Source: Endomicrobiales bacterium (GTDB taxonomy: Bacteria > Elusimicrobiota > Endomicrobiia > Endomicrobiales > CAWCFT01). Taken from it: a DNA stretch of 64,000 bases. A model generated the notes under the pieces. It searched no databases and had not been told where the DNA came from. It worked only from the letters and a program-made list of their open reading frames with translations. Shown piece by piece: positions 4,179-61,544 of this stretch; the stretch's first letter is position 1, and each line of letters begins with the position of its first letter. The translations under genes and the position numbers were made by a program. The stretch spans positions 64,001-128,000 of the forward strand of contig CAWCFT010000002.1 in the NCBI GenBank assembly GCA_963794945.1, in the 5' to 3' direction.

Positions 4179-4255
4179 CCAAATCCCAATCAACAACATG
4201 TTCGGCCTTTGATGTTTTGGGATTTTGGATTTATCTTATTGGGATTTAACAAAAT

Positions 4256-9220: not shown

Positions 9221-9225
9221 TCAAG

Positions 9226-9592
9226 TCAAAGATCAAATATTAAATATCAAAATTTAGGTTAACAACTTTGATAAAATGAACCTCCGCGCAGCAAGCAGCG
9301 CGGTATCAGATGAATTTTATCTTTCTTCCTCGCCCTAGATGGGAGAGGATTGAGGTGAGGGTGAGCTTTCAAGTGCAGCTTTTTATTTAGCCCCCTCATC
9401 CTAACCTTCTTCCTTATCGGGCCCTTTGGGTTGGCCCTCAAGGCCCAAAGTCTTACCCGCCAGCGGAAGAAGATATATTCGGTAACCCCGCAGAAAGTCG
9501 AAGATCCGCCGGGGCGGGCTGCGGGGAATAGTCAAGTTTAAATAGTTTTGAATATTGATCTGTATTTTTGACATTTGATTTTTGATATTTAA
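9226..9592. repeat. Nested composite palindromic repeat, copy 1
   Basis: Outer TCAAA(T/G)A heptamer arms around a ~260-bp core (GGGAGAGGATTGAGGTGAGGGTGA...CCCCTCATCCTAACCTTCT) also found at 10555-10812. Confidence 0.85.
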
Positions 9593-9606
9593 TTTTTAGT
9601 ATAACT

Positions 9607-10485
9607 ATGACAACCAACAAATACGTTGACCTTCATATACACACGAATTACTCGGATGGGGTACTGACACCGCAGGAAGTTGTGCGCCGCGCGAAAGAGG
9701 TGGGGCTTGCCGCAATAAGCATTACCGACCACGATTGCGCCGACGGTATAGACGCCGCGATCGAAGAGGGGCTGAAAATCGGCGTAGAGATTATTCCGGG
9801 CGTCGAGCTTTCCACCGAAGTTGAGTGCGTTGAACGAAGCGAGATGCACATACTCGGCTACTACATCAACTGGAAGAACGAACAGTTCAAGGACTCTCTT
9901 TCTCTCTTCCGTAAAAGCCGCCAAAAACGCGCCTGCCTTATCCTTGAAAAACTTTCTAAACTGGGTGTATATCTCACGGACGAAAAACTCACGGGCGGGC
10001 CGGAATCATTTGCGATAGGCAGGCTGCATTTCGCAAAAGCGCTGATCAATGATGGTTATGTTTCAACAATAAACGAGGCGTTCCAGAAATACCTCTCTTT
10101 CGGTAAACCCGCCTACGTCCCAAAATTCCATTTGACGCCGGAAGACGCCATAAAAATGATACTCAAAACCGGCGGCATACCTGTTTTGGCGCACCCTTAT
10201 TACGGACATTACTCAAACAAGAACCTTATCAAGGGGCTTGTGCGCGACGGCCTGGCAGGCATGGAAGTCTGGCACACAAAGCACCCGGCTTCGACTATTA
10301 GCCATTTCACTGCTTTGGCCAATGAGTTCGGGCTTCTTGCAACCGGCGGTTCGGACTGCCACGGAGGGTTCAACGGTGAGCCGCCTATAATAGGTTCAAT
10401 TAAAATACCCTACAGTGTTGTTGAAAATCTAAAAAAGTTTAAAGAGAACAAAGACAAACTCAACAGCACAATATTAGACCAATAA
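9607..10485 (+). CDS. PHP domain protein (TrpH/YciV-like)
   Basis: DLHIHTNYSDG, ITDHD, PGVELST, HILGY, VLAHP, TGGSDCHG. Confidence 0.9.
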   Translation: MTTNKYVDLHIHTNYSDGVLTPQEVVRRAKEVGLAAISITDHDCADGIDAAIEEGLKIGVEIIPGVELSTEVECVERSEMHILGYYINWKNEQFKDSLSLFRKSRQKRACLILEKLSKLGVYLTDEKLTGGPESFAIGRLHFAKALINDGYVSTINEAFQKYLSFGKPAYVPKFHLTPEDAIKMILKTGGIPVLAHPYYGHYSNKNLIKGLVRDGLAGMEVWHTKHPASTISHFTALANEFGLLATGGSDCHGGFNGEPPIIGSIKIPYSVVENLKKFKENKDKLNSTILDQ

Positions 10486-10852
10486 CAATATCAAAAATTA
10501 AAGATCAAATATCAAAAATACAGGTCAAAACTTAAAAATATAGACTATTTATAGAACCACCGCACAGTCAAGCAAGGCGGGATGCGATATCAAATATATT
10601 TTGTCTGTTCTTCCTCTCCATTGATGGGAGAGGATTGAGGTGAGGGTGAGTTGTCAAATGTAACTTATATTTAGACCCCTCATCCCAACCTTCTTCCTTA
10701 TCGGCCCCTTTGGGCTGGCCCTCAAGGCCCAAAGTCTTACCCACAAGGGGAGAAGATAAATTCGGTAACCCCCGCCGTCCCGCCATGGCGGGATGGGGAA
10801 TTGTCAAGTTAAAGCCGTAGCCTTAATTTTGACATTTGATTTTTGATTTTTT
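10486..10852. repeat. Nested composite palindromic repeat, copy 2
   Basis: Direct-orientation homologue of 9226-9592 with the same outer heptamer arms. Confidence 0.85.
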
Positions 10853-10876
10853 ATCTCTTCGTTAGCTGGAGGCGTC

Positions 10877-11752
10877 ATGAAAACATTAGCTCCCATTATC
10901 CAGAGCCTTCGCGTTAAACAGTGGACAAAGAACCTGCTTATTTTCGCGGGTATACTATTTTCTCAGAACATTTTCGTCCCGCAGATGTTCTTGAGCGTTC
11001 TTTGCGGCTTTTTGGTATTTTGCCTGCTTTCAGGCGCGGTTTACATATTAAATGACATAGCGGACGCTGACCGCGACAGGAAACACCCCGTTAAATGCTC
11101 CCGGCCGATAGCTTCAGGCGCGCTCAGCGTTAAAACAGCCGTCTACGCTTTCATAGTTATAGTAGTCGCGTGCCTGGCCGCGTCATTCTATCTGGGGCCC
11201 TATTTCTTTGCTGCGGCGGTCACATACCTTTTCCTTCAGGTGGCTTACAGCTTTCTACTTAAACACGTTGTCATACTTGACGTGTTCACCATAGCGGCCG
11301 GTTTCGTGCTCAGGGTAATCGCGGGAGCGGTGGTGATAGAAGTCGAGATATCTTCCTGGCTTATCATATGCACGATCCTGCTTTCCCTGTTCCTTGGCTT
11401 TTCAAAAAGGCGGCACGAGCTTGCTTCGATGGAAAATGGCGCCCACGAGCACAGAAAAGTACTTGAGGATTATTCTGTCTACCTCATCGACCAGATGATA
11501 TCGGTCGTTACTGCGTCCACAGTTATATGCTACGCGCTGTACACAATGGCGGATGAAACCATAGCCAAATTCGGCACTTCCAACCTGATATTCACCGTCC
11601 CTTTTGTCCTTTACGGCATATTCAGATACCTGTACCTGATCCACAAGAAAGGCGAGGGCGGCAATCCCGAAAATATTCTGGTCACTGATGTCCCGCTTAT
11701 CATCGATATCGTACTCTGGGCCGTGACGTCGGGCCTGATACTATATTTATAA
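10877..11752 (+). CDS. UbiA-family polyprenyl-phosphate phosphoribosyltransferase (DPPR synthase-like)
   Basis: RVKQWTKNLLIF, YILNDIADADRDRKHPVK..RPIASG, LKHVVILDV, GFVLRV, KRRHE. Confidence 0.88.
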   Translation: MKTLAPIIQSLRVKQWTKNLLIFAGILFSQNIFVPQMFLSVLCGFLVFCLLSGAVYILNDIADADRDRKHPVKCSRPIASGALSVKTAVYAFIVIVVACLAASFYLGPYFFAAAVTYLFLQVAYSFLLKHVVILDVFTIAAGFVLRVIAGAVVIEVEISSWLIICTILLSLFLGFSKRRHELASMENGAHEHRKVLEDYSVYLIDQMISVVTASTVICYALYTMADETIAKFGTSNLIFTVPFVLYGIFRYLYLIHKKGEGGNPENILVTDVPLIIDIVLWAVTSGLILYL

Positions 11753-11763
11753 ACACATATACT

Positions 11764-11914
11764 AAAATTCAAATATCAAAAATCAAAAGTCAAAATTATA
11801 TATCAAAATATAAAAATATACACTATAGAATAGTCTGAAAATATTAATGATTGTCTATAGCCTGTTAAAGCCGTTAACATTATTTTTGATATTTAATATT
11901 TGATTCTTGATATT
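11764..11914. repeat. AT-rich heptamer (TCAAAAA/TCAAATA) inverted repeat
   Basis: TCAAATATCAAAAATCAAAAGTCAAAA ... TTTTTGATATTTAATATTTGATTCTTGATA. Confidence 0.7.
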
Positions 11915-11935
11915 AACAATTAAGGAGTTATCATA

Positions 11936-12977
11936 ATGTCATCTTATCTTATCACCGGCGGAGCCGGATTTCTGGGCATCAACCTTGTGAGGTACCTTCT
12001 TGCGAGGGGCCATTCCGTAGTTACTCTTGATATCGCGGCGTTCGACTACCCCGACGTCAAAGACAAAATTAAGATCATCACCGGGGACATAAGGGACAAG
12101 GCGGCGGTAGAGGCCGCGATGCAGGGCGTCGATATCGTGATCCACACGGCCGCGGCGCTGCCGCTTTACACAAAAGAAGATATTTACACGACAGACGTCG
12201 TGGGCACAAAGAACGTGATAGACTCGGCTTTTGACCATAAAGTTCAGCGGTTCATACAGATATCGTCTACCGCGGTTTACGGCATACCCGACCACCACCC
12301 CCTGCTTGAAGACGACAAGCTTGAAGGCGTCGGCCCTTACGGGCAGGCGAAGATAGACGCGGAAGCGGTGTGCCTAGAGTACAGGAAAAAAGGCATGTGC
12401 GTACCGATAATCCGCCCAAAATCGTTCATCGGGCCGGAAAGGCTCGGCGTTTTTGCCCTGTTTTATGACTGGGCTAAAGACGGCAGGGGCTTTCCTATGA
12501 TAGGAAGCGGCAACAACCGCTACCAGCTTCTTGATGTTGAAGACCTGTGCGATGCTATTTATCTCACCGCCACGCTTGACAAACAGAACCGTCAACGATA
12601 CGTTCAACATAGGCGCCACGGATTTCACGACCATGAAAGAGGATTATCAGGCCGTACTTGACGAGGCCGGCTTCGGAAAGAAAGTAACCGGCTTTCCGGC
12701 CGCTCCCCTTATAATTACGCTGAGGATCCTAGAATTCTTCAAACTTTCGCCTCTTTACAAATGGGTTTACGAAACGGCCTCAAAAGATTCATTTGTTTCA
12801 ACGCAAAAAGCTGAAAAGCTTCTTGGCTTCAAGCCGAAATTCTCGAACAAGGACGCTTTGGTCCGCAACTTCAAATGGTACATTAAAAATTTGGCCCATT
12901 TTAAAAATACCAGCGGAGTATCCCACAGGGTGCCGTGGAAACAGGGGATACTGGGTCTGGCGAAGGTATTCTTTTAA
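11936..12977 (+). CDS. NAD-dependent epimerase/dehydratase (frameshift near 12590)
   Basis: ITGGAGFLG, GDIRD, SSTAVYG, YGQAK; C-terminal half in ORF 12531-12977. Confidence 0.85.
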
Positions 12978-13192: not shown

Positions 13193-13283
13193 ATTATAAG
13201 CAGCGAATAAAGTCAAATAAATGCTCATTTAATAGAATACAGGTACAGTTTAATATTGCCGATTAATCAATAAGGAGGGGCAG

Positions 13284-14714
13284 ATGATATCTTTGACAAA
13301 GTATCAGATGCTGGATGCGGAGCTTTCGCAAATTGAGGGAGAAGACAGGCAGTTCCAGTGCAGGCAGGTCAGCGACGCCGATGTCAAGGCAATGGCTGAA
13401 ACGCTTAAAAAAGAGAAGCAGAAGGTGCCGATTTACCTGCTGCGGCGCAGGAACGGCAAATTGCAAATATTGTGCGGGTTTACCAGATATCTTGCGGCAA
13501 AACTGTTGGGCTGGGCAACAATAGTCGCTATAATTATCCCTGAAGAAGACTTTGAGAACGAAAATGAGATATATAAGTTCGGGGTAATAGAGAACGGCAA
13601 GCGCAAGCCGTTAAGTAATGCGGACAAGGGGAATATTTGCAAAAGTATGAGCGCAAGGGGCATGAACAACGTTGAAATTGGGGAATGTTTAGGCATAAGC
13701 GAAAAACAGGTGCGCAGGTATTTAAAGATAGCCAATGCCCCGGCTGAAGTGCAAAAAGGCATGAGCGACAATAGTGTTCCGCTTAGGGCAATAGACAATA
13801 TTGACCCGGCAACCGGCCAGCTCGGCACGCGTGCCGAGCAAATTGTGGATAACCCCAATTCACGCGTAAAATCAGTGAAAAACGGGTTTGACGCAACCCT
13901 GAAATTCCGGCTTGGGCGCGATGGGGCGGATTTGATCAAGAAGTTTAAGGCCAATATAGATGAGGCGTTTAAAGAAGCGCAAAAACCACAACCAGTGTCT
14001 CGGGCCAGCCATGGCGGGCTTGACCCGGCGGCTGTAAAGGCCGCAAAGGCCACGCTCAAGGCCGACAAGATTGAGGCAGACGGGATTGAAGCGGAGATCA
14101 AGCTCGGGCAGGCCGCGGTCAAGAATGCTGAAAAGGGTAAGCTCGATTCGTCCGCCATGAAACAGCAGTTACAGGAAAAGATAGATAAGCTTAAAGCGCT
14201 GAAACTCAAGATCAAAGAAGCAGAGAAGTTTTTGAAACCCGCCTCTGCTAAACCCAAAAAACCCACTATTCAACAAGCCCCAGGCCGATCATCCCAACCC
14301 CAAGTGTCATCCCAGTCCAATGTGTCATCTCCATCAAATATGTCATCTCGACCGCAGGGAGAGATCTTACCATTAGGCAATAACTCCGCTGTCGGTTTTG
14401 ACCTGATAGAATTGAAGCTGTCTTTCGACCCGTCAAAACCGCCCGCGGAAAAGCTAACCGAAATAAGCCTCACACTTAATGAATCCAAACCAATATATGC
14501 AACGGCGCAGGTTATGGGAAACCCAGTTCCGCTGGACAAAAGCAATAAAGAAATAAAGTGGCATGGCGACGGCGTTGAAGTAACGCCAAACTGGGGCCCG
14601 GAGGTAACCATAAAACTGCCCGCGCCGCTTGCCCAGCCCGGCAAGCTGACAGTCTCCTGCCGGATGCCAAACGGCAAAGACATTGAAGCAAGCGCGGTTG
14701 TAAAACAATCCTGA
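13284..14714 (+). CDS. ParB/Srx-like N-terminal domain + HTH protein, paralogue 1
   Basis: AGGAGG RBS; MAETLKKEKQKVPIYL..QILCGFTRYLAAKLLGWATI..IENGKRKPLS, HTH EIGECLGISEKQVRRYL; coiled coil, low-complexity linker, unique beta-rich C-terminus. Confidence 0.8.
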   Translation: MISLTKYQMLDAELSQIEGEDRQFQCRQVSDADVKAMAETLKKEKQKVPIYLLRRRNGKLQILCGFTRYLAAKLLGWATIVAIIIPEEDFENENEIYKFGVIENGKRKPLSNADKGNICKSMSARGMNNVEIGECLGISEKQVRRYLKIANAPAEVQKGMSDNSVPLRAIDNIDPATGQLGTRAEQIVDNPNSRVKSVKNGFDATLKFRLGRDGADLIKKFKANIDEAFKEAQKPQPVSRASHGGLDPAAVKAAKATLKADKIEADGIEAEIKLGQAAVKNAEKGKLDSSAMKQQLQEKIDKLKALKLKIKEAEKFLKPASAKPKKPTIQQAPGRSSQPQVSSQSNVSSPSNMSSRPQGEILPLGNNSAVGFDLIELKLSFDPSKPPAEKLTEISLTLNESKPIYATAQVMGNPVPLDKSNKEIKWHGDGVEVTPNWGPEVTIKLPAPLAQPGKLTVSCRMPNGKDIEASAVVKQS

Positions 14715-14871
14715 GCCCGTGGTCCCTAAGCAGGCAAAGGCCGTAATAGCATGGGATTGTGACAATTGATACAATATGAGTCAAAAAGTTAGAAAAGGGT
14801 GTGGTATGAATCAATAGGTGACCCCATTGAATGCTGGGAGCCTATCTGAGAATCAAGGTTTTGGGATGTAT

Positions 14872-15018: not shown

Positions 15019-16125
15019 ATGCTTAAATCTTTTAAGGTGGAAAATTTCAAATGTTTTAAAAATCTTGCGCTTGATGATTTTAGTCGTTTTAATATTATTG
15101 TGGGGAAAAATGCTGCGGGCAAAACTACTTTGCTCGAAGCGATCAAGATAATGCTTGATGGAGCTCCAGGATCTCTACCCTGGCTGAATAGTTTTCGCAA
15201 TATTCCCATTTTTATTCCACAAAATCCTACAGCAGAACAATTCCGGCAACAATTTACCGGATTCTTTCACGGATTCCACCATGAGATACCAATAAAAATG
15301 CATACCGTGGACTTCAACAACAGAAATGCGGCATTATCTATTTATTTTGACCCTAAGAAAGCTATTAGCATTCAGCCGAAAATTGGTTTTCAACAGTCAG
15401 CATCAGTTCCACAGCCAGACACATCATCGGTTTCACCGACAACAGTGGTGCCATTAGCATTTGATAGAATGGATTTTGAAGGTCATAGGGATATACCTCT
15501 TATCACTATCCAACCTGGCGGTCAAGTATTCTATCAACAAGGAAAATCAATGGGAATTTCTTCTGGTTTTATAACAGGCACATATATTGGATATCCCTCT
15601 GAAAATGCTACTTGGCTATCAACATTGAGCGTGCAAAAACGCAGCAAAGATGTCATAGAGGCATTACGTCAACATTTTTCATTTATAGAAAATGTAACGG
15701 TAGAAGCACCGTTTCAAGGACTCCCTCCACTTGTATACGCTGATATAAAAAATATTCCCGAGAAACTACCACTGTTTGCAGTTTCAGCAGGAATTAGCAG
15801 AATTTTTACGTTTATAGTAGCAGTAGTTACGTATGGCAAAGGAGTTTTACTAATAGATGAAATTGAAAATGGAATTTTTAACGATCAATATCAGCTTGTT
15901 TGGAAAAGCTTAATTGACCTCGCCCGGCAAAATAACACTCAATTATTTGTTAGTACGCATAGTAATGAATGTTTGCGAGCCATACTTCCCATAATGAAGG
16001 ACAACGAGGATGATTTTACGTTTCTTCGCGCTGAACATCAAAACGGAAATTCAAGTATTTCCCGATTTGACGGAAAGGAGATGGAAGCAGCTTTAGCCAA
16101 TGGAGCAGAGATACGATCGGCTTAG
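15019..16125 (+). CDS. AAA_15/AAA_21 (AbiEii-like) ABC-type ATPase
   Basis: VENFKCF, GKNAAGKTTLLEAI, signature-like VSAGISR, LLIDEIENG, FVSTHS; AT-rich relative to neighbours. Confidence 0.85.
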   Translation: MLKSFKVENFKCFKNLALDDFSRFNIIVGKNAAGKTTLLEAIKIMLDGAPGSLPWLNSFRNIPIFIPQNPTAEQFRQQFTGFFHGFHHEIPIKMHTVDFNNRNAALSIYFDPKKAISIQPKIGFQQSASVPQPDTSSVSPTTVVPLAFDRMDFEGHRDIPLITIQPGGQVFYQQGKSMGISSGFITGTYIGYPSENATWLSTLSVQKRSKDVIEALRQHFSFIENVTVEAPFQGLPPLVYADIKNIPEKLPLFAVSAGISRIFTFIVAVVTYGKGVLLIDEIENGIFNDQYQLVWKSLIDLARQNNTQLFVSTHSNECLRAILPIMKDNEDDFTFLRAEHQNGNSSISRFDGKEMEAALANGAEIRSA

Positions 16126-16137
16126 AGGTGTGTAATA

Positions 16138-16791
16138 ATGGACAATTTTGAGTTTACTAAATCACACTTTTTAATGTGCGAAGGCGATGACGATAAGGGA
16201 TTTCTGGAGACTCTCATTAAAGAGCGTGGCTTACCTGATTTCCAAGTTTGTCATGCAGCGGAATGTAATGATAAAAATACGGGGGGAAGACCTGGTTTTG
16301 AACATTCTCTTGCCGGTTTCTCGATCATTAAAGGTTTCGCATATGTAAAAGCAATACTTATTGTTTCGGATAATGACACGCCTGCTTCATTCAACGAAGT
16401 CTGTAGTGCACTGACTAATAATAACTATACTGCACCAAGCACACCTAATTCAGTTGGATCAATTAAAACAAAACCAGTGGCAATTCTTATGATTCCACGT
16501 AATAAGAATGGAGATTTAGAAACGCTGTGTCTTCCGTCAATTCATGAAAAGTGGCCAAAGTCATCAGAATGCGTCACGTCCTTTCTTAGATGTACAGGAG
16601 CCGATCAGTGGCAAAAATCTTCTAGTGTTAATAAGGCTCGCGCAAGAGCTGCGACAGTCGGATTCAATGAAGAAGACCCATTTAGAGGAATAGGCCATCT
16701 GTTCAGGCGCGGCACGCTTTCTAGTAAAAATGCCTGCTTTGATGAAGTTGCAGAATTTCTCAAAAATTTCGATAAAATGTGTAATATATAG
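16138..16791 (+). CDS. DUF3226-like TOPRIM-fold protein (putative nuclease partner)
   Basis: MCEGDDD (TOPRIM EGxxD), IVSDND (DxD), GDLETLCL; 12 bp downstream of the ATPase. Confidence 0.65.
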   Translation: MDNFEFTKSHFLMCEGDDDKGFLETLIKERGLPDFQVCHAAECNDKNTGGRPGFEHSLAGFSIIKGFAYVKAILIVSDNDTPASFNEVCSALTNNNYTAPSTPNSVGSIKTKPVAILMIPRNKNGDLETLCLPSIHEKWPKSSECVTSFLRCTGADQWQKSSSVNKARARAATVGFNEEDPFRGIGHLFRRGTLSSKNACFDEVAEFLKNFDKMCNI

Positions 16792-16937
16792 TTTATAAAT
16801 CCCACAGAAAAACCTATTTATAAATACCTTCTAAGATATATTTTATATTCACAACGCATAAATAAACAGAAAATGTTGTTCAGTGTTCTGTAACTAAACA
16901 AATGGTGTCACCTATGAAAGAAAAAGTCAAGGTGACA

Positions 16938-17150
16938 AAAAGTATCTCCGCAGTAGTTTCTAACTACTGATCTGTTCTGTTAAACAAGTTCTTTGGCCGT
17001 TCGCCCGCTTTGTATCGTAAGAAGCTCCGAAAATATCCGGACTTCAGTCACCTATTGGCAGCTCTGCACTTGGCGGACTGCATGATAGAATCGGGCGACG
17101 CCCCTCCGCTAATCAGACTTGTTGAAGCTGTCAGCCTTGCGGCGGACACT
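16938..17150 (-). ncRNA. Candidate bridge RNA/seekRNA in the IS right (3') non-coding end
   Basis: ~210-nt non-coding segment after the transposase stop; contains TCACCTAT (17048-17055, equal to the donor end 16908-16915) and TCAGACTTG / GTCAGCCTTG (17113-17121, 17130-17139) resembling target GTCAGGCTTG. Confidence 0.6.
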
Positions 17151-18177
17151 TCAGGCACCATTGAGCGCGAGGGACGCCGTAGTCCGTATATAATATGGCC
17201 GCTTATCTTTCAAAACTCGATACACAATTTTCAATAAATCTCTGGCAAGAGCCACTCGCGCCACGTTGGGCGCTTTCCGTTTGGCTATAGCTTCATACTT
17301 TTCTGTTCGTTCAACGCTGCTCTTTGAAAAATGGTGAACTGCCTCAATCAATATCCACTGTAGGTGTTTACGCCGATTCTTATTTAAAGAACCGTGATAT
17401 TCTTTGTCGGCGCTCTGGAATGTTCTCGGTGCAAGGCCTGCGTACGCGCAGAGGCGGTTAAATGTTGTAAAACGGCTAATATCGCCTATCTCGCTTTTAA
17501 TAAGCAATGCACTAAAACTGCCGATCCCAGGAATACTTTCAAGATTCCGTGCGTCGGGATCACTTTCGGCTATTGCATGTAGTTGCCACCCGATACGGTT
17601 TTCACGCGCATTCAAAGCGCCTATTTGCTCAATCCAGTTTTCTGCGGCAATCCGGCACGGTTCAGATAATTTGTTCACCGCAATACCGTTCAATTGCTTC
17701 ATTGAAGTATAGTCACCCGTTGACATCTGTCCATGGCGATCAAGAAGTGACTTTAACCGTGCTGTGTTCCGCGTTCGTTCACTGACAATGCTCATCCGGC
17801 AATGCAACAGTTCTTTAATAGCTCGTATCTTCTTGTCTGGCAGCTCTACTGTAGGTAAATAGCCCTTACGGAGCACATCGGCTATAAGCCGGGCATCTAT
17901 CTTGTTCTGTTTTCTTGTTTCGTTTTGCAAATGCTTTCAGCTCGTACGAATTCGCAAGATACACCTTGTAAGCATATTCTTCGGCGAGATCAACGAAATA
18001 GTACCAATTGTAAGTCGTTTCAACTGCAAGTGTAAATGGTCGTGGGAGCGTTTTATAATATGATCGCAACACTTCTGGCAAATTTGCTATACTCTGGCTG
18101 TCAATCCGTTTGCCCTGCTCGTTCGTCACGTAAAACCAAGAACGCTCTTTGTGCAAGTCTACACCAACATAATTCAT
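17151..18177 (-). CDS. IS110 transposase/recombinase (one-base frameshift near 17905-17910)
   Basis: MNYVGVDLHK, LAVETT, KT(D)KIDA across the frameshift, LESIPGIG, AYAGLAPRTFQSA, ARVALARDLL; GAGGAGG RBS. Confidence 0.9.
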
Positions 18178-18436
18178 GGCAACCTCCTCGTTTTGTCTTA
18201 TTGCTCGATACAATAAGTTTAACAAAACTAGATGGAGGTTGCTTTCATATTATCAGGCTTGACTTATTGAACTAAAAAGATTTTGACAAAATCTATAAAT
18301 TGACTCAATGAATAAAAACAGCGGCGATCCTGACTAAGTGATTTAAAGGACGTAAAGGATAATAGTTAGTGAAGCCGAGACAGCATTTTATAATGTCTAT
18401 AAATGAATGGTTTGATTCCGTAATCTCAAGGATACA

Positions 18437-33166: not shown

Positions 33167-34014
33167 AGATATCGGCATTCACCGCAGGCATATTATTGTT
33201 GTTTTCCGTGATTTCAGCGCCTGAGGTTCAGGCAGATGGGCCAAGGCGTATCATTTCGCTTATTCCTTTGGTCACAAGAAGCCTCTATTTGCTGGGTTTA
33301 AAGGATGAGATAGTTGCCGTAACTATCTATTGCCCTGCTGAAGCCAGGGACAAGATAAAGATAGGCAGCATCCTTGAGCCGAACATTGAAAAGATAGTAT
33401 CCCTCAAACCCGATATAGTGATAGCCTCAAAAGAGGGCAACAGGCAGGTTACTGTTGATAAACTTAGATCCCTCGGCATTAGCGTATATGTAACAGGTGA
33501 CGTGAACAGCTTTGAGGATATCTATAGTGATTTTATAAAACTTGCGGAGTTCCTAAGGCGTGGTGACAAGGCGCGCGGCATTGTAGATGACTCCAAAAGA
33601 AGGATATCTGCGCTCAGGAACAAACTTAAAGATGTCAAACCGGTGAAAATATTTTATGAAGTAGGGGCTCAACCGCTGTTCACTGCCGGAAAGAAAAGTT
33701 TCGCGAACGATATAATAGAATCAGCCGGAGCAGTAAATATATTTTCGGATGTCGGTTCGCGTTTCCCGCAGGTAAGCCGCGAAGAAGTCATCAGGCGCGA
33801 CCCCGAAGCTATTATCCTTGTGGCCATGGGCAACGTCAACTTAAAAGAAAAGGCCGCCTGGAACAATTTTAAGGCCATTCAAGCCGTAAAGAACAACAGG
33901 GTCTATTTTACTGACGACAATTCGTTTACCGACCCGACACCCAAGTCCACAGTAGACGCTTCAGAGAAGCTGGCCGAAATACTTTTTCCTGACGAAACCA
34001 AATTAACTCCATGA
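33163..34014 (+). CDS. btuF: Cobalamin ABC transporter substrate-binding protein
   Basis: PRRIISLIP, PNIEKIVSLKPD, VSREEVIRRDPEAI. Confidence 0.85.
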   Translation: MKISAFTAGILLLFSVISAPEVQADGPRRIISLIPLVTRSLYLLGLKDEIVAVTIYCPAEARDKIKIGSILEPNIEKIVSLKPDIVIASKEGNRQVTVDKLRSLGISVYVTGDVNSFEDIYSDFIKLAEFLRRGDKARGIVDDSKRRISALRNKLKDVKPVKIFYEVGAQPLFTAGKKSFANDIIESAGAVNIFSDVGSRFPQVSREEVIRRDPEAIILVAMGNVNLKEKAAWNNFKAIQAVKNNRVYFTDDNSFTDPTPKSTVDASEKLAEILFPDETKLTP

Positions 34015-35010
34015 AAAATAAATACGCGGTTTTATTGATCCTGTTTGTGATACTGATCCTCACATCGCTGTTCTCGCTTTCGGTGGGCGGAAGCAATATA
34101 CAACTTTCAGAAATTGTCCGAACATTATTCTCAAAAGGCTCTTCGGACACGATGTCTATGATAATCTGGAATATACGCCTGCCGCGTGTGGTACTGGGAG
34201 TTTTCACAGGCATGGGCCTTGCGGCTGTGGGATGTGTTTTCCAGGGGCTCTTAAGGAATCCGCTTGCCGACCCCTACACGCTCGGAATTTCCGGCGGCGC
34301 TGGCGTTTGGAGCCACGCTTGCCACTGTAACGGGCATCGCCGGTGTATCGGTATTCTCGCTCCCTCTTTGCGCGTTCCTCGGGTCGCTTGCTTGCTTTTA
34401 TGCCGTGTACTTCATTGCTTCACGGAAGAATTTCTCGGTTACTTCGCTTATACTCACCGGCATAATATTCGGCTTCATATTCTCATCTGCAGTTTTGCTA
34501 ATACTGGCGCTGGCGAGCCCCGATAAGGTCCAGTCGTCGCTCATCTGGCTCACGGGTGACCTCTCCTCTCCGGATGTCCACCTTATTTTCATCGTATCAG
34601 CTATCGTGCTTTGCGGCATAACGGTACTGTTTGTATTCTCCAGGGAACTTAACATTCTGGTTCTTGGCGAGGAAAAAGCGTTCACTCTCGGCGTCAATAC
34701 CGAAACCACCAAAAAGATAGTATTCATAACCGCCTCACTTATTACCGGAGCCTGCGTGTCGGCTTGCGGCATAATTGGTTTTGTCGGGCTCGTTATACCT
34801 CACCTGATGAGAAAGCTCACCGGGCCCGACCACAGGTTCCTGCTGCCGGCGTCGGCGCTGGCGGGAGGGATATTCCTGCCTTTGTGCGACTCGTTCGCGA
34901 GGTCTATAATAGCGCCAATGGAGCTGCCGGTCGGCGTCATAACCGGGCTTGCCGGAGGGGTATTCTTTCTATTCTTCCTGTTAAAGCCCGGCGATAACAG
35001 GACTTTTTAA
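34011..35010 (+). CDS. btuC: Cobalamin ABC transporter permease (frameshift near 34300)
   Basis: IRLPRV, FQGLLRNPLADPYTLGISGGA; GEEKAFTLGV, IGFVGLVIPH, ELPVGVIT. Confidence 0.88.
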
Positions 35011-35816: not shown

Positions 35817-37333
35817 GCATAGCCAAAACAATAATGATACAGGGGACAGGCTCAGGGGTCGGTAAAAGCGTTTTAACCTCAGCCCTGTGCCGGATATTCG
35901 TACAGGACGGTTATAAAGTAGCTCCATATAAAGCGCAGAACATGGCGCTCAACTCTTTCGTGACGGCTTCCGGCGGCGAGATTCGGCCGCGCTCAGGCCG
36001 TTCAGGCCCAGGCTTCTAGGATCATCCCTACAGTTGATATGAACCCGGTACTTATTAAACCGTCTTCTGATATGATGGCCCAGATAATCGTGCTTGGAAA
36101 ACCCATAGGTAACAGGTCAGCCATGGGTTATATGAACAATACCGGAAAACTTTTCGGAACTGTAAAGACCTCTCTTGATAAGCTGCGGCATGAATACGAC
36201 GTTGTTGTCATGGAAGGCGCTGGGAGCCCTGCTGAGGTAAACTTAAGGAAAAACGACATAGTTAATATGCGGATAGCTTTGGCGTCCCATACACCTGTGA
36301 TACTCGTGGGCGACATAGACAAAGGGGGCGTACTAGCTTCCATCGTAGGCACACTTTCCTTGCTCAATAAGCACGAGCGAAAACTCGTCAAGGGAGTGAT
36401 AATTAATAAATTCCGCGGCGACCTGAGATTGTTCGAAGACGGTGTGCATTTCATCGAGGAACGTACCGGCATAAAGGTGCTTGGTGTTATCCCGTATTAC
36501 AGGAACATAGATATCCCTGAAGAAGACGCCATCCCCTGGGAGAAAAGGGCCGCGGCCTCTAAAAACATACGTCCTATAAATATCTCCGTCATCAGCCTTC
36601 CACACTTATCTAATTTTACCGATTTCGACGCGCTTGAGCGCGAGCCGGATGTGAAGCTGTCATACGTAAGAAAACCGGATGAACTGGGTAACGCGGACGC
36701 TGTCATACTGCCGGGCACAAAGAACACAATTTCAGATGCGGCGTGGCTCAAGAGTTCGGGAATGTCAGACAGGATACTTTTATACGCCTCCAAAAACAAA
36801 GGAACTGTCGTCGGGATTTGCGGCGGTACCAGATGCTGGGAGAAAATATTTATGACCCCGGGCATATTGAATCAAAGAAGGGCGCGGCACCGGGGCTTTC
36901 ACTGCTTCCCGTAAACACCGAACTGAAAGCGCAGAAACAATTGAGGCAGGTTTCGGGCCATGATATATCCAGCGGTGCAGCGGTTAAGGGTTACGAGATA
37001 CACCACGGTCATACCGCCGTTGGAAAAGCATGCAAACCGGCTTTTAAAATAGACGGCACTAATACTATGGATGGAGCTGTCAGCCGTGACGGGCGGGTTT
37101 GGGGAACATACGTGCACGGCATATTCGACAGCTCTTCTTTTCGAAGGAATTTCCTTAACGGATTGCGCAAAAGAAAAGGGCTTAAACCTCTCCCCGCGTC
37201 TAAGTATAACAACGATACCGAGTTCGACAAGCTCGCTGACTTAGTAAGGAACAATATAGATATAAAAGCAGTTTACAAGATACTAAACGGCACAAAAACT
37301 ACCGGTAAATCCCGGGAACCGCAATTGGTATGA
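35813..37333 (+). CDS. cobQ: Cobyric acid synthase (two frameshifts)
   Basis: [48 protein letters not shown](Y), [14 protein letters not shown]. Confidence 0.92.
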
Positions 37334-45135: not shown

Positions 45136-45147
45136 ATTATTTTAAAA

Positions 45148-45260
45148 TAAAAAATCAAATATCAAAAATCAAATTTAACGTACCGCGTGGGGCTTATTTA
45201 AAATTGTTTTATGAGCAAAACTCCTAAATTTTGATCTTTGATTTTTAACATTTGACATTT
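45148..45260. repeat. AT-rich heptamer inverted repeat
   Basis: AAATCAAATATCAAAAATCAAA ... TTTTGATCTTTGATTTTTAACATTTGACATTT. Confidence 0.7.
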
Positions 45261-45281
45261 AGTAGTTATCGGCATGATCAG

Positions 45282-45992
45282 TTATTTTAACTTTAGCAGC
45301 CACACCCTTAAGAGGTATTTGAGGAGCGTTAACGGTTTTAATTTGGATTCGCCGGCTATCCTCGGCAGAAATTCGATGGGTATCTCGCTGATCTTTATTG
45401 AATTCTTTTTGGCATAAAAAAGCACTTCGGTCACTATGAAGGGGTCTCTCGCTGAAAGCCTGGGAAGTATTTTCTCCAGCGCGCCTCTTTCAAAAAGCCT
45501 GAAACCCGAGCTCGGGTCTTTGACCTTTATTCCCAGCACGAAAGAGAGGTACCTGCGGGCAAAGCCGCTTATCGTTTTGCGGAGCGCTGTGCGCGCCTCG
45601 TCTTTGCCTCCGGCCACGTAGCGTGACCCTATCACTATCCCGCCGCCTGCGGCGTTGGCGAAAAGCGTGGGGATATAGGCCGGGGAATGCGAGCCGTCGC
45701 CGTCCATCTCCACGACGTACTTGGCGCCCATCTCTAAAGCTTTTTTAAAACCGTCTATTCCGGCCCACCCCCTGCCGCGGTTCTCTTTTCTTAACAGGAG
45801 GTGCACACGCTTGTCGGTCCTTGCCATTTCTTCAACAAGCTTGTAAGTCCCGTCCGGTGAGAAATCGTCAACTACCAGCACCTCAATGTTCAGTGGAAGC
45901 GCGAGTATCTCGGAAACCACCTGCTTTATATTACCAGCTTCGTTGTAGGTAGGGATGACTGCAATAATGTCCACTTTAAGATCCTTATCCAA
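45282..45992 (-). CDS. GT2 polyprenol-phosphate glycosyltransferase (DPM1-like)
   Basis: VIPTYNE, VVDDFSPDGT, EMDGDGSH, IGSRYV, GESK. Confidence 0.88.
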   Translation of the reverse strand: MDKDLKVDIIAVIPTYNEAGNIKQVVSEILALPLNIEVLVVDDFSPDGTYKLVEEMARTDKRVHLLLRKENRGRGWAGIDGFKKALEMGAKYVVEMDGDGSHSPAYIPTLFANAAGGGIVIGSRYVAGGKDEARTALRKTISGFARRYLSFVLGIKVKDPSSGFRLFERGALEKILPRLSARDPFIVTEVLFYAKKNSIKISEIPIEFLPRIAGESKLKPLTLLKYLLRVWLLKLK

Positions 45993-46045
45993 AAATCAAA
46001 TATTAAATATCAAAATTATGGTTAACAACTGATAAGATAATATTC

Positions 46046-47212
46046 TCAAGTTTTGATATGCAATTTTGATCTTTGATTCTTGATATTTGATATCTCTTCC
46101 ATGTGTTTGCTCACGGCATTTAATACTTCGGCCGGGCTTATCAGTTTCATGCAGTCGGGGCGCACATCGCAGTCGGGCAGGTAACAGCACGCGCACTTGG
46201 CCGGGCTCACTATCTTTGTCCCGCGGCCGTACATCTCAATCTCAGCTGATGACGTCGGGCCGAACAGCGCGACCGCTTTCTTTTTAAGGCCCAGCGCGGC
46301 GTGCAGGGCCAGCGTGTCTCCGGAAACCATGATGTCGCTCAGGTCAAGCAGAGCGAAAAAATCAAGGAGTGAATTGTCCGTCCCGGCGCTTACGGCTTTG
46401 CCTTTGGAAGCCTTTACGAGTTTGGTTATGAGGTCCTTTTCTTCTTTGCCGCCGTAAAGCACGGCTTTCGCGCCGAGGCCGTGCACGGCGTTTATCAGTT
46501 TGACATAACCCGCGTCGGTCCATTTCTTGAACCTCCAGCGGCCGCCGGCGCCGGGGTTTATTCCAACCACAGTCTCGCCTGTAAGCTTGTTGCGGCGGGC
46601 AAACTCCATCGCCTTCCGCACGGACTTTTTATCGAGGGGGGTATATATCTCGTAATCGCCTCTATCGAGGCCGGTGATCTTCGACATCCACCACTGGTAG
46701 GTTCCCCTGTTCTTCTTTTTAATGTCGTCGAACGCGCTCATCGAGAGCCACTTGCGCGCGTAGGGCCCCGAACACTCCACCCTGCGTCCGTGGCCCAGCC
46801 AGAAACCCAGTTTCCTGCCGGCCGAGGCAAGCGTCGCCAGCCCCAGGCTTTCGGGAGCGAGGTCGAGGTTTATGCGAACATCGAACCTTTCTTTTGTTAT
46901 CTTGCCGAATATATCGCAGTCGAAATTCCACACACGGCTCACGCTGGGGTTTTTTTCGAGTATCACCGCGGAATGCGGCGCCACTATCCAGGTTACTTCG
47001 GGGTTATTGTATTTTTTCTTGAGGCCTTCAAGCAGGAATGTTGTGCGCAGGACGTCGCCCATCGCGCCGATCTTCACGATAAGGACCTTCTTCCTTTTCG
47101 CCTGGGCGTTAACGGAAACGTATTTACCGCACGAAACGCATTTGATGCCGCTCTTCTTGTGAAAAGCGCAGGGCCTGTCCAGCGGGAAATGTACGCAGTC
47201 AGTTCTTACCAT
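46046..47212 (-). CDS. GT9 (heptosyltransferase-like) glycosyltransferase
   Basis: KIGAMGDVLRT, GINPGAG..W..KKW, SGDTLALH, LFGPTS; Cys clusters at both ends; tail runs into a heptamer repeat at 45993-46092. Confidence 0.85.
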   Translation of the reverse strand: MVRTDCVHFPLDRPCAFHKKSGIKCVSCGKYVSVNAQAKRKKVLIVKIGAMGDVLRTTFLLEGLKKKYNNPEVTWIVAPHSAVILEKNPSVSRVWNFDCDIFGKITKERFDVRINLDLAPESLGLATLASAGRKLGFWLGHGRRVECSGPYARKWLSMSAFDDIKKKNRGTYQWWMSKITGLDRGDYEIYTPLDKKSVRKAMEFARRNKLTGETVVGINPGAGGRWRFKKWTDAGYVKLINAVHGLGAKAVLYGGKEEKDLITKLVKASKGKAVSAGTDNSLLDFFALLDLSDIMVSGDTLALHAALGLKKKAVALFGPTSSAEIEMYGRGTKIVSPAKCACCYLPDCDVRPDCMKLISPAEVLNAVSKHMEEISNIKNQRSKLHIKT

Positions 47213-49990: not shown

Positions 49991-50117
49991 AAAAATTCAA
50001 AAATCAAAAATATGTATCCACTTTTGGAGTATAATTTAAATATACCGCAAAGCGGCGCATGAATTTTGATATTTAATGTTTGATATTTGATATTAAGACT
50101 AAAATAAGAGGTGACCA

Positions 50118-52862: not shown

Positions 52863-54507
52863 ATGCTAACAACAAGGCTCACTATTTGTTTGCTGATCAT
52901 TGCCATATTCAGCCTGCGGGTAAACGCCGCCACCAAGAACGTCATGATATTGTTTGACAAGGGCGAAGATAAAACGCAGCCGGCGTTGGCGGAAGCAAGG
53001 TACATCGCCAACCTGCTGGGCCATTTTGACACGCGCGTCGGTTTTTGTCCGGTGGCAGAATACCAGCGCGGCATGACAGACTCGTTCGACATAATCTTTT
53101 ACATAAACTATGAATCGGAATACGATCTGCCTGAAGCCTTCAAAGCCGATGTTATTAAATCTAAAAACACCTTTTGCTGGATAAACCTGCAGCTGGGCGA
53201 GCTTGACCAGGAAGCCCTGAAAAATACATTCGGATTCCATTTCGCCCGCTACGTCGAAGATTCCGGCTTTAACAAAGTTTCCTACCATGGCGTTGTCTTC
53301 CCAAAGGGCGGCAACGATATCAACATGGTCTCTATAGACAACCCGTCTCTCGCGAAAGTCAAAGCTTACGCGCTAAATAATAACGGGGCCAAAGCGCCAT
53401 ATATAATCAATTCGCGCAAATTCTGGTTCGTCGCGGACTCGCCGTTCTCGTATGTGTTTGAAAGGGACAGGTACCTTGTTTTCGCGGACATCCTGCACGA
53501 TATAACGGGCGAACACCACAAGAAGGAACATACCGCGCTCGTAAGGCTTGAAGACGTAAGCCCAGACAGCGACCCTAAACAGCTCCTCGATGCCGCTAAA
53601 TACCTCCATTCTCAAAGGGTCCCTTTTGCCGTCGCCCTGGTACCGGTCTATATCGATCCCGTCAATAAGATAGAACTCCATCTGACCGACAGGCCCGAGC
53701 TACTAGCTGCGCTGAGGGAAATACCGGAACTTGGAGGTTCTTTTGTCCTGCACGGATACACGCACCAGTACAAAGGTATAAGCACGGAAGATTATGAGTT
53801 CTGGGACATATCGTCCGACAAACCCGTCGATGGGGATTCTATCGAGAACGCGTCCTTAAGGATCGACAAGGGCATCAAAGAGTGCCTGCTGAACGGCATT
53901 TACCCTTTAGCCTGGGAAACGCCGCATTACGTCGCGTCTAACAACACGTTCCTCGCCGTAAAACAATATTTCAGTGTTACTTACGAAAGAAGGAACACAA
54001 TGGAATACGCTGGCAGCGATCGAATTCTTCCCGTACCCGGTAACAGATATTTACGGCCAGCGGGTGATCCCTGAAGATCTCGGTTACGTGCACGGGGACA
54101 AACCCGGCGCCGAAGATATTTTGGAAGGCGCGAAGCTCGACCTTGCCGTTCGCGACGGGTACGCCAGCTTTTTCTTCCATCCGTTCCTGAGCGCTGATTA
54201 CCTGAAAACTATAGTAAAAGGGCTGAGAGCAATGGGGTACAAGTTCGGCGACATAAGGGATTTCTCGCCTGTTGTCGAAGACAGGGAGGCTGTGGTCCTG
54301 ACACCGGGCGACCACCACATACGTATCCAGACGCACGACAACTGCATCACAATGAAGGAGATCGATTTCAAAGGGAACATATTAAAAAACAGCGTTTTGC
54401 CTATCGCCAAAAACCCGTACGAAGCGAATATAGAGTGCCCGAGGTCCACTTATCTTGTGATCACGGGGCAGGGCGCAAACAACGGGAACAATATCTCACG
54501 TAACTAA
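52863..54507 (+). CDS. DUF2334-like polysaccharide deacetylase (frameshift near 54020)
   Basis: Signal peptide; LVRLEDV, VLHGYTHQ, WETPHY; FFPY..IPEDLGYV, SFFFHPF in the next frame. Confidence 0.75.
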
Positions 54508-59026: not shown

Positions 59027-59058
59027 TAGTAAGGCAAAGGCCAAAAGTGGAGGGTGTC

Positions 59059-59307
59059 ATGCTTAAGTTAAACGCAAAGGCATTGGGGCTGTCGTTAGGT
59101 ATCGTTTGGGGGGCGGCGATGTTGATACTGGGGCTGGTAAATATGCACAGCATGTTCGGCAGCGGAATAATGCACGGAATGTCAACGCTGTACATAGGCT
59201 ACAAACCCACGATACCGGGCAGCATAATAGGCGGAATATGGGGCTTATTCGACGCAGGCATAGGCGGAGTTATCATTGCCTGGCTTTATAATATGTTCTC
59301 TAAATAG
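59059..59307 (+). CDS. Small membrane protein
   Basis: GGAGG RBS; KALGLSLGIVWG...YIGY.PT..GSIIG..WG..D. Confidence 0.7.
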   Translation: MLKLNAKALGLSLGIVWGAAMLILGLVNMHSMFGSGIMHGMSTLYIGYKPTIPGSIIGGIWGLFDAGIGGVIIAWLYNMFSK

Positions 59308-59758: not shown

Positions 59759-61375
59759 ATGATCAGCCTTACCAAGTACCAGATGCAGGATGTGGAGCTC
59801 TCGCAAATTGACGGGGAAGACAGGCAGTTCCAGTGCAGGCAGGTCAGCGACGCCGATGTCAAGGCAATGGCTGAAACGCTTAAAAAAGAGAAACAGAAGG
59901 TTCCGATTTACCTGCTGCGGCGAAAGAACGGCAAACAGCAAATATTATGCGGGTTTACCAGGTACCTCGCGGCAAAGCTGCTGGGCTGGGCAACAATAGT
60001 TGCCATAATGATCCCTGAAGAAGACTTTGAGAACGAAAATGAGATATACAAGTTTGGCGTAATAGAGAACGGCAAGCGCAAGCCGTTAAGTAATGTGGAT
60101 AAGGGCAATATTTGCAAAAGCATGAGCGCAAAGGCCATGAACAACGTAGAAATTGGGGAATGTTTAGGAATAAGCGAAAAACAGGTGCGCAGGTATTTAA
60201 AGATAGCCAATGCCCCGGCTGAAGTGCAAAAAGGCATGAGCGACAATAGTGTTCCGCTCAGGGCAATAGACAATATAGACCCGGCAACCGGCCAGCTCGG
60301 CACGCGTGCCGAGCAAATTGTGGATAACCCCAACTGCTATGTAAAACCAGTTAAAAGTGGGTTTAAGGCTGTGCTGAACTACCGCGAAGGCAAGGATAAG
60401 GATGATGTAGTGAAGAGTTTCAAGGCCAAAATAGACGCGGAACTTGCGAAATTGCAGAAGGCGCGGGCAGAGGCCGACAAAGAGGCAGCCCAAAAGGCAG
60501 CTGAAGCCGATAAGAAGGCCAACGAGGCCAGGGCAACCAAGCTTGCCGAAGATATTAAGGTTCTTGAAAGCGCCGCCAAGACCATGGAGAAAGACAAGCA
60601 GGATTCGTCCGCTATAAGGCAGCAAATAGAAAACAAAAAGGCCGAGCTAAAGGCGCTGAAGGCTCGCCCCGTTAGAAATACATCAACAATAGTGCCCGGT
60701 AAAAGTAATGAAGGCCCGGCTGACCAAGGGCAGCCTATCTCTAACGGGGCAAGCGCCAAGCCGAACAAGAACCCCAGCCCGGAGCAGTTGGCACAGCTAA
60801 AGAAATTCAAAGAGGGCGGCCAGGCCGCGGTGGAAGCCGGGCTTGAAGCCCAGCTTGCCCAAATGAAGTTGGGCCTGAACAGCCCCAATATAACCGACGC
60901 CCAAAAAGCCGGCCTAAACATGTCCATCCAAATGCTCCAGTCCCAGCTAGACGCGCTAAAGAAAGGCAACCATCCCCAGCCTGGCAACAATACCCCACAA
61001 ACTCCTTCGCCCCATGTTCGGGGTGAGACCCTGGGCCTTGAGGGTCAGCCAAACGGACCCGAAAAGGAAGAAGGTGGGCCCGCCTCTTCGGCAGGCATGG
61101 ATGAGGGGGATACCGTTCAATCTGGTCAAAGGGCAGGTGAGCCTGTCCGCCAAAGTCCCAGTGGCGGAGGAGGTGTGCCTGCCGCTGAACAAAACACCGG
61201 CGGCCACACCACCCACGTCTTTGGCGATTTCAGCAAACTTGAAGCCAGGATAGCAGAACTCGAAAAAGAATCCGTAGACCCCGCAAAAACCGACGAGGAA
61301 CGCTCCGCCAAGAAAGCCGAGCTCGAAGAATCCAAAGCAAGCCTAGCAGACATCAAGAAATTCTTGGGTTCTTGA
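59759..61375 (+). CDS. ParB/Srx-like N-terminal domain + HTH protein, paralogue 2
   Basis: GGAGG RBS; first ~192 aa about 95% identical to 13284-14714; different C-terminal half. Confidence 0.8.
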   Translation: MISLTKYQMQDVELSQIDGEDRQFQCRQVSDADVKAMAETLKKEKQKVPIYLLRRKNGKQQILCGFTRYLAAKLLGWATIVAIMIPEEDFENENEIYKFGVIENGKRKPLSNVDKGNICKSMSAKAMNNVEIGECLGISEKQVRRYLKIANAPAEVQKGMSDNSVPLRAIDNIDPATGQLGTRAEQIVDNPNCYVKPVKSGFKAVLNYREGKDKDDVVKSFKAKIDAELAKLQKARAEADKEAAQKAAEADKKANEARATKLAEDIKVLESAAKTMEKDKQDSSAIRQQIENKKAELKALKARPVRNTSTIVPGKSNEGPADQGQPISNGASAKPNKNPSPEQLAQLKKFKEGGQAAVEAGLEAQLAQMKLGLNSPNITDAQKAGLNMSIQMLQSQLDALKKGNHPQPGNNTPQTPSPHVRGETLGLEGQPNGPEKEEGGPASSAGMDEGDTVQSGQRAGEPVRQSPSGGGGVPAAEQNTGGHTTHVFGDFSKLEARIAELEKESVDPAKTDEERSAKKAELEESKASLADIKKFLGS

Positions 61376-61513
61376 TCCACCATTGTTCCAGAGAATTGGG
61401 CTCTTTCGAAATTAGAAATTGTTTCATGGCATTGTGCCTTGCAAACATAGAATTAAAGAGGTAAGATTTTCATAATGTGAGTCTGAATATTCATATTGAG
61501 CAAACAGAAATAA

Positions 61514-61544
61514 TTAGTTCAATAAGTAAAGCCTGACACCATTT
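61514..61544 (-). repeat. Unoccupied copy of the IS110 target motif
   Basis: Reverse complement AAATGGTGTCAGGCTTTACTTATTGAACTAA vs rejoined IS flanks AAATGGTGTCAGGCTTGACTTATTGAACTAA. Confidence 0.85.

Follow-up and report, generated by a model that had tools for sequence, protein, structure and literature searches.

The 31-mer repeat found behind a ParB-like gene in the DNA analysed here is very probably a terminal inverted repeat (TIR) of a TIRtron, the tip of which is the target of an insertion sequence (IS) of the IS110 family, and its intact copy would be a solo TIR that happens to lie behind the ParB-like gene. The window, that is the whole stretch of DNA under analysis, is 64,000 nucleotides long and covers positions 64,001 to 128,000 of contig CAWCFT010000002.1 in the Endomicrobiales assembly GCA_963794945.1. 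Its relevant features are collected in Table I, together with a transposase gene located on another contig of the same genome. A first-pass annotation of the window had described the repeat as a functional cis site linked to a family of ParB-like proteins, the two forming together a possible undescribed module. The tempting idea of a "ParB plus site" module is removed here from the candidates, and the motif is filed under the existing TIRtron class. Three small additions result: a natural case of an IS110-family element that has a TIRtron tip as its target and guide-like strings in its non-coding region, a TIR with two 9-nt direct repeats standing beside a transposase with a putative DnaA-like HTH, and a bias of TIR copies towards defence islands; they may be relevant to workers on HUH transposases and on bridge/seekRNA elements.

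Table I. Position of the features discussed in the text (window numbering, except for the last line)
Feature	Position	Strand	Evidence or remark
ParB-like paralogue 1	13284..14714	+	ParB_N match
Claimed short motif variant	14811..14828	+	without statistical support
AbiL-like / PDC-M38-like two-gene defence system (AAA_15/AAA_21 ATPase and DUF3226)	15019..16791	+	AbiLi 163.7 bits; between ParB-like gene 1 and the IS-hit TIR
TIR copy A, tip part: second TGA and last 8 nt (16900-16907), against IS right end	16900..16910	-	sequence match
IS110-family IS, IS1111-like layout, 1,342 bp	16911..18252	-	Pfam PF01548 and PF02371; one of 5 copies
Start of IS downstream non-coding region, predicted stem and internal loop	17100..17175	-	predicted fold
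TIR copy A, inner 23 nt, terminal TGA against IS left end	18253..18275	-	sequence match
Degenerate partner TIR, divergent with copy A, inner ends 87 bp apart	18363..18389	+	local alignment score 32, shuffle maximum 26, 0/500 shuffles
ParB-like paralogue 2: ParB_N and HTH, long low-complexity/coiled-coil tail, GxxRxxA	59759..61375	+	TIGR00180 56.5 bits; PF02195 22.6 bits, below cut-off
TGAGTC box of the first-pass annotation	61478..61483	+	common to copy A only, no family feature
TIR copy B, intact solo TIRtron TIR	61514..61544	+	nhmmer 25.5 bits
RAYT-like transposase gene, 294 aa	C15:88243-89124	-	Y1_Tnp, NF047646

Copies of the repeat in the window

Copy A of the repeat is split by the IS, with a TGA at both junctions, and when its two parts are joined across the element the resulting sequence is identical at 30 of 31 positions to the intact copy B, which begins 139 nt 3' of the stop codon of ParB-like gene 2; position 15 is the exception, being C and not A. 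The restoration of the 31-mer by removal of the IS, as first described, is therefore confirmed. In copy B, two 9-nt inner repeats precede the tip CCTGACACC(ATTT). The 26-mer reported in the earlier annotation has one occurrence in the window with up to 3 mismatches allowed, 0 being expected.

A shorter variant of the motif had also been claimed behind ParB-like gene 1, and this claim is not sustained. Unbiased local alignment of the 3' flanks of ParB-like genes 1 and 2 scored 19 where shuffles averaged 17.7 and was equalled by 141 of 500 of them, the score of the gene 1 flank against the natural TIR copies was equalled in 57 of 200 shuffles, and the variant is absent from the nhmmer output at E ≤ 200. 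A gapped pattern written for the short variant matches twice in the window versus 0 times in 100 shuffles, a pattern that was derived from the same data. The segment is at best a decayed relic of the motif. The TGAGTC box, which had been presented as shared by all copies, is found 5' of only 2 of the 20 strong copies in the genome, both of them in the window, and an alignment of 11 copies restricts the conserved part to about 32 columns. Nor does the motif follow both ParB paralogues in a comparable manner, since the copy hit by the IS lies 3.5 kb 3' of gene 1, in inverted orientation and beyond the AbiL-like two-gene system.

The degenerate partner of copy A listed in Table I leads us to regard copy A as one arm of a gene-less, MITE-like pair of TIRs. 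A search for a partner TIR 5' of copy B found none (score 9, with 498 of 500 shuffles equal or better). Two further candidates were rejected: a weak inverted copy 5' of ParB-like gene 2 (59051-59070, 9.9 bits), because it overlaps the ribosome-binding site and the initiation codon of an ORF for a small membrane protein, and a 43-kb element delimited by the two window copies, because the interval carries genes for cobalamin salvage, a TonB receptor, glycosyltransferase, DksA, MscS and OmpA.

Assignment of the motif to the TIRtron class

A profile built from the motif copies was run with nhmmer on the 2.9-Mb assembly, and copies reaching at least 12 bits were considered strong. Twenty hits were obtained, 17 of which lie outside ORFs of at least 150 aa, and the copies are dispersed as singles, as clusters (C1:137-145 kb; C2:130178-130276) and as a pair (window 18253-18389). 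Contig C15 carries a RAYT-like gene flanked by an inverted pair of copies, 88207-88238 (-) and 89163-89192 (+), which agree over 33 nt with 1 mismatch and have their CACCGTTT ends facing outward. The encoded protein matches Pfam Y1_Tnp with 66.3 bits and NCBIfam REP_Tyr_transpos (NF047646) with 88.2 bits for a cut-off of 80, and its translation shows the HUH motif (HFH; NHFHLL) as well as the catalytic tyrosine in RYIHLNP. Its C-terminal HTH scores 24.5 bits with Bac_DnaA_C, below the Pfam cut-off of 31.5, which is exceeded by the transposase homologue of genome G006 (33.2 bits). The motif scan and the alignment of 11 copies revealed no self-complementary stem or inverted repeat inside the motif. 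In this lineage the inner part of the TIR consists of two 9-nt direct repeats, perhaps read by the transposase HTH, and is followed by the tip GGTGTCAG, which agrees with 7 of the 8 positions of GGGGWSAS.

TIRtrons are described in passages of Di Nocera, De Gregorio & Rocco 2013 (PMC3733652) as RAYT-like genes flanked by non-palindromic TIRs, many of which, not all, have GGGGWSAS in common, and some of which constitute dispersed families of moderate abundance, with single, dimeric and clustered copies. According to passages of Quentin et al. 2018 (PMC6006769), most of the corresponding transposases (TIRYTs) belong to subclass 2.1 of TnpA-REP and have DnaA-like or other HTH tails (Bac_DnaA_C, HTH_23, HTH_28); the TIRtron/TIRYT class probably corresponds to this subclass. 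Since inverted copies flank a RAYT-like gene, the TIR is non-palindromic, its tip is near GGGGWSAS and its copies are dispersed, we identify the motif from these sequence features as the TIR of a TIRtron. The unit would measure about 1 kb and contain a single RAYT-like HUH tyrosine-transposase gene, the TIRYT with a DnaA-domain-IV-like HTH tail, between inverted repeats, and solo TIRs, pairs and clusters would presumably have been spread by the TIRYT in trans. Likeness to the described class extends to the HUH/Y1 gene with its putative HTH tail, the non-palindromic TIRs on both sides, a tip close to GGGGWSAS and the dispersed TIR family. Points of difference are the tip GGTGTCAG itself with its 7/8 agreement, the host, an Elusimicrobiota MAG, and the inner part of the TIR formed by two 9-nt direct repeats. 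Moreover, the TIRs concentrate here in defence islands and are an IS110-family target, neither of which is mentioned in the portions of PMC3733652 and PMC6006769 concerned with TIRtrons and TIRYTs. The tip that matches GGGGWSAS only at 7 of 8 positions and the HTH below its cut-off weigh against the TIRtron reading.

The arrangement also resembles that of REP/RAYT systems (REPtrons, REPINs), where a transposase gene is flanked by its cognate dispersed repeat and copies occur behind genes and in inverted pairs. Unlike REPs, the repeat analysed here does not form a palindromic stem-loop, nor are its copies consistently tagged with GTAG or CGTC; some of them, as on C15, do contain GTAG, which the window copies lack. 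It is hardly credible that the motif is a classical REP unrelated to the transposase, with an RNA-level role in termination or in mRNA stabilisation: the intergenic position of 17 of the 20 copies, many just behind genes, would agree with such a role, whereas the lack of a self-complementary stem, the occurrence of both orientations relative to the upstream gene, the conservation of the transposase bracket across genomes and the absence of an Rfam match (a search of the motif returned only sub-threshold snoRNA noise) argue against it. An integron attC site had also been considered and was dropped, nothing indicating attC.

The assignment as a TIRtron TIR was further examined in related genomes. 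Orthologous transposases are bracketed by TIRs on both sides in G003 (72% identical) and G001 (62%), and a transposase homologue on metagenome contig L132 likewise has a TIR on either side. A one-sided TIR accompanies the transposase in G016 and on contig G001:C115, and also at contig ends in L118, L120 and L129. Of the 41 genomes of the order that were searched, 11 contain the pattern AGTNAAGCCTGACACC with at most 1 mismatch, with 7 hits in G001, 7 in G002 and 18 in G003, and the reversed control gave 0 in all. In family f10 the transposase occurs in 0 of 26 genomes and a single pattern hit in only 2 of them. No TIRYT was found with the query used in G002, a genome 99% complete that has 7 motif copies, which weighs against the TIRtron reading. 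Transposase homologues in Binatia, in a Deltaproteobacterium and in G004 (L043, L044, G004) are flanked by TIRs that have the tip GGGGTCAG and a comparable inner part. In metagenomes, 42 distinct loci carry the exact 19-mer, 7 of them, L132 included, with a transposase homologue beside the motif; many of the 42 are without inner repeats and some are probably chance or coding look-alikes, tens of chance 19-mer hits being plausible by our own estimate from the size of the database.

Two further observations concern TIR variants. At G000:C1:143947-145043 (L002:11948-13044, -), a KilA-N gene lies between two direct copies of a variant TIR in which a 72-nt GC-rich insert stands between ...AAGTCAAG and GCCTGACACC. 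The junction ...TGGCGGGCCTGACACC of this insert-bearing variant recurs three times in G002, which makes it a conserved sub-family. In G003, TIR-like 25-mers are found within an ORF of 5,115 aa (L035, C13:43000-59453; at 4164-4191, 12756-12779 and 13245-13269), which represent either TIRs inserted in frame or a coding repeat of TIR-like sequence.

An IS110-family element inserted in the TIR tip

The genome contains five copies of the IS, which are 98.7-100% identical. An intact copy, of the C1:142567-143907 type, encodes a DEDD transposase of 357 aa, which matches the NCBIfam entry NF033542 (IS110 family RNA-guided transposase) with 221.6 bits, and the non-coding region of the element is situated 3' of the transposase gene, an IS1111-like layout. 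All five copies are preceded on the left by ...AAG(C/T)CTGA and followed on the right by TGA...; three of the five are located in full TIR tips at one position and in one orientation, and the two others in sites that have only a core of about 12 nt in common. The TIR tip is the preferred target of the IS, and the earlier suggestion that the motif is exploited by an RNA-guided IS is borne out by these three copies. Insertion into the tip would take place between AAGYCTGA and CACC in a single orientation, and the equivalent point in copy B would lie between AAGCCTGA and CACC.

The non-coding region of the IS folds better than shuffled sequences (z -2.3). In its predicted structure, AAUGGUG in the stem with the internal loop is the complement of the right target flank CACCATT, and AAGUCUGA, located 3' of AAUGGUG, has the same sense as the left target flank. 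For elements of the IS1111 type, passages of Siddiquee et al. 2024 (PMC11187229) place the non-coding region downstream and the complement of the top strand first in the seekRNA. The order of the two strings here agrees with this arrangement and was counted in favour of RNA guidance. To judge from these strings, the IS is probably guided by RNA that derives from the non-coding region behind its transposase gene, where a complement of the right flank precedes a copy of the left one.

The behaviour of the element is in line with repeat targeting by other IS110/IS1111 elements, with which it shares insertion at one position and in one orientation of a repeated element, a DEDD transposase and a short core duplicated at the junctions; a non-coding region with strings that match both target strands is a further likeness. 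It differs from them in its target, here the tip of a TIRtron TIR. Inverted repeats of transposons of the Tn21 type are known to receive IS4321 and IS5075. Insertion into REPs is documented for the IS110/IS1111 elements ISPa11, ISPpu9 and ISPpu10 in passages of PMC1525189 and PMC11187229. No report of TIRtron ends as targets of IS110-family elements was found in the literature on TIRYTs, the terms IS110 and IS1111 being absent from PMC3733652 and PMC6006769 being represented by its part on TIRYT and DnaA only.

Contigs with the IS sequence (16904-18272) and without the window flanks occur in four public runs, and in one run from another study a relative of the IS, about 91% identical, stands against a TIR-like left flank. 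In the window copy the transposase frame breaks near 17905, where three public runs have one base fewer, so that the frameshift is probably an assembly indel. Other genes in the window are also split by apparent frameshifts, namely at 63309 (CheB/CheR-PAS-kinase), 34011-35010, 36039-37333 and 53974-54074, with FecCD, CobQ and DUF2334 among those affected. On metagenome contig L127 (444-1777), the gene of a distant IS110-family transposase (29% identical) adjoins a full TIR copy; the association between TIRtron ends and IS110-family elements may be wider than this genome.

Position of the TIRs relative to ParB-like genes and defence islands

Eighteen ParB-like loci were counted in the genome, 17 as ParB_N loci from PF02195 and 1 by tblastn only; one of the 18 is the ordinary chromosomal ParB (112.7 bits). 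The paralogues are mosaics with respect to one another: identity is 87% between the N-termini of paralogues 1 and 2 and about 82-85% between the last 120 aa of paralogue 1 and C1:74877-75242, and matches to paralogues on C8 and C9 occur in other regions. Comparison of the ParB islands by tblastx limits the homology to the ParB genes, from ATG to stop. Of the 401 genomes of the phylum searched, 4 have members of the family of paralogue 1 (ParB1-like, E ≤ 1e-15): 7 in G000, 6 in G004, 3 in G012 and 1 in G006.

A strong TIR copy is present at most 6 kb downstream in 4 of the 18 ParB-like loci, versus 2.7% of 1,537 long ORFs (permutation p ~0.001); two of these four loci are those which gave rise to the hypothesis, and without them the count becomes 2 of 16 (binomial p ~0.07). 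Within 300 bp past the stop codon, a TIR or a fragment of its inner part is found in 3 of the 18 loci, and such fragments lie 43 and 274 nt after two ParB-like genes other than that preceding copy B. In G003 a TIR variant lies 20 nt past the stop of a ParB-like gene (L037:2946-4187, C29), and in G006 a TIRtron of another TIR type (tip GGGGACGT) stands about 9 nt past the stop of a ParB1-like gene that is 43% identical (L040:3424-5513, C14). Altogether, TIRs or TIRtrons located at most 300 bp behind ParB-like genes amount to 5 cases in 3 genomes, with differing types of TIR sequence.

These positions, from the 139 nt that separate copy B from gene 2 to the excess of strong copies within 6 kb downstream (2/16, p ~0.07, without the pair behind the hypothesis) and the two inner fragments, are arguments for regarding the motif as a site similar to parS or to KorB operators, on which the ParB-like paralogues would load, possibly as CTP-dependent clamps, site and protein travelling as a module. 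The GxxRxxA motif readable in the ParB-like proteins points in the same direction. Such a reading is nevertheless very unlikely. Copies of the motif stand on both sides of a transposase gene in 3 genomes and in one metagenome contig, the motif is non-palindromic, its distance and orientation relative to the ParB-like genes vary, and the homology between ParB islands is confined to the ParB genes. Moreover, motif and protein family dissociate in both directions. The three genomes G001, G002 and G003, with 7, 7 and 18 pattern hits, have no ParB1-like gene at E ≤ 1e-15, the only ParB_N locus in each of G001 and G002 being a canonical ParB (100-111 bits). Conversely, G004 and G012, with 6 and 3 ParB1-like genes, gave 0 pattern hits, and no TIR was found in the 9 ParB loci fetched from them. 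The TIR type proper to G004 is also missing from its six ParB1-like loci at up to 5 mismatches of 23, in contigs of 3-8 kb and one of 28 kb, of which a 13-kb stretch was examined. A profile of 15 ParB-like N-termini run on the 42 metagenome motif loci gave 1 marginal match (17.7 bits, positive controls reaching 66-174 bits), so that 0-1 of these loci carry a ParB-like protein versus 7 with the transposase. This double dissociation and the metagenome counts speak against the module proposed in the first-pass annotation.

The resemblance to parS/ParB and KorB operators therefore comes down to a short site near a parB-like gene and to ParB-like proteins that keep GxxRxxA, whereas the motif is non-palindromic, has a distribution among genomes that does not follow that of the protein family, and is part of another element. 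Among the kinds of cis site originally envisaged, the element end is retained, in the form of a TIRtron TIR, and the parS-like site is abandoned, because the motif brackets a transposase gene and its spread is independent of the ParB family. Likewise, the enrichment analysis that had been suggested does show the motif near ParB-like genes (4/18 versus 2.7%) and on both sides of a RAYT-like gene, and reveals no dependency on ParB across genomes. The link with ParB is a positional tendency, not a dependency. In G012, GC-rich REP dimers are present 0.8-1.3 kb 3' of 2 of the 3 ParB1-like genes; they were rejected as support for a ParB link, because housekeeping operons (Mla, TonB receptor) contain or precede them and they are clustered round the RAYT of that genome.

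The surroundings of the TIRs were compared with PADLOC models at E ≤ 1e-15 for 10 clear TIR loci and 10 random loci. Matches were obtained for 13 of 92 ORFs in the TIR loci (7 of 10 loci) versus 4 of 95 in the random ones (2 of 10), with Fisher p values of 0.022 for ORFs and 0.07 for loci. Those in the TIR loci include R-M systems, SoFic, AbiL-like, PDC-S05/RhuM, PDC-S22/KilA-N and PDC-M41A systems and an SspH-like protein, and those in the random loci resemble housekeeping ATPases and a RecQ-type helicase. In the relatives, TIR copies are found beside Fic, SLFN/AlbA_2, TdeIII R-M, AbiE, Mrr, Bro-N and ParB-like genes. Taken together, the PADLOC enrichment and the neighbours in relatives suggest that TIR copies gather in accessory or defence islands, and the closeness of ParB-like genes and TIRs probably stems from shared residence in such islands. 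Copy B would accordingly be near a ParB-like gene since the TIRs and several of the ParB-like paralogues occupy the same islands. In the 11 ParB-like loci without a TIR, however, PADLOC matches are not enriched (7 of 100 ORFs versus 4 of 95, p 0.54), so that island residence explains the pattern only in part, and the co-localisation with ParB is stronger than island residence alone clearly explains.

Several TIRs are arranged as convergent pairs. They bracket the CheB/CheR-PAS-kinase gene in this genome (C2:125515, +, and 130178-130276, -), a TdeIII-type R-M cluster with DUF2130 in G002 and two small ORFs in G005. In addition, behind each of three ParB-like genes, about 2-3 kb of differing cargo (AbiL-like; KAP NTPase; PDC-M41A and radical SAM) precedes an inverted TIR or fragment. 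Along with the enrichment of PADLOC matches in TIR loci, these brackets would suit TIR tips that are active recombination or landing sites, the pairs bracketing exchangeable cassettes of defence genes, at times with a ParB-like gene at their head, and the TIRYT being the enzyme. We consider this unlikely: the pairs are too few for an orientation test, the flanks between islands are non-homologous, no cassette was seen to be polymorphic for presence or absence in the public runs, which covered the IS only, and REP-type repeats are generally found behind operons (a passage of PMC3733652), so that the picture can be had with no cassette mechanism. A broader version, in which TIR ends would build the accessory islands of these Elusimicrobiota, with TIRtrons and TIRs landing behind ParB-like genes, these genes often heading the units so formed, tips bracketing defence cassettes and the TIRYT, its HTH perhaps reading the two 9-nt repeats, serving as recombinase, is also to be regarded as unlikely. 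The reading as TIRtron TIRs, with copy B a solo copy behind ParB-like gene 2, is kept.

Other repeated and mobile sequences were noticed in the same regions. At L003:5228-8015 (G000:C2:131228-134015), a TonB-dependent receptor gene is interrupted between its Plug and barrel parts by an IS200-type Y1 transposase of 149 aa, of which the genome has three identical copies. An AT-rich repeat family with units such as AAATATCAAAAATCAAAT (families D4, D5 and I1-I25) flanks several genes of the window in both orientations, at 9225-11925, 45140-46110 and 50058-50103. An 87-nt intergenic repeat is present at 9381-9467 and 10665-10751, and the segment 61021-61078 inside ParB-like gene 2 is 83-84% complementary over 55-58 nt to parts of it (9404-9458, 10685-10742); as far as this similarity indicates, the intergenic repeat family seems to have a copy within ParB-like gene 2.
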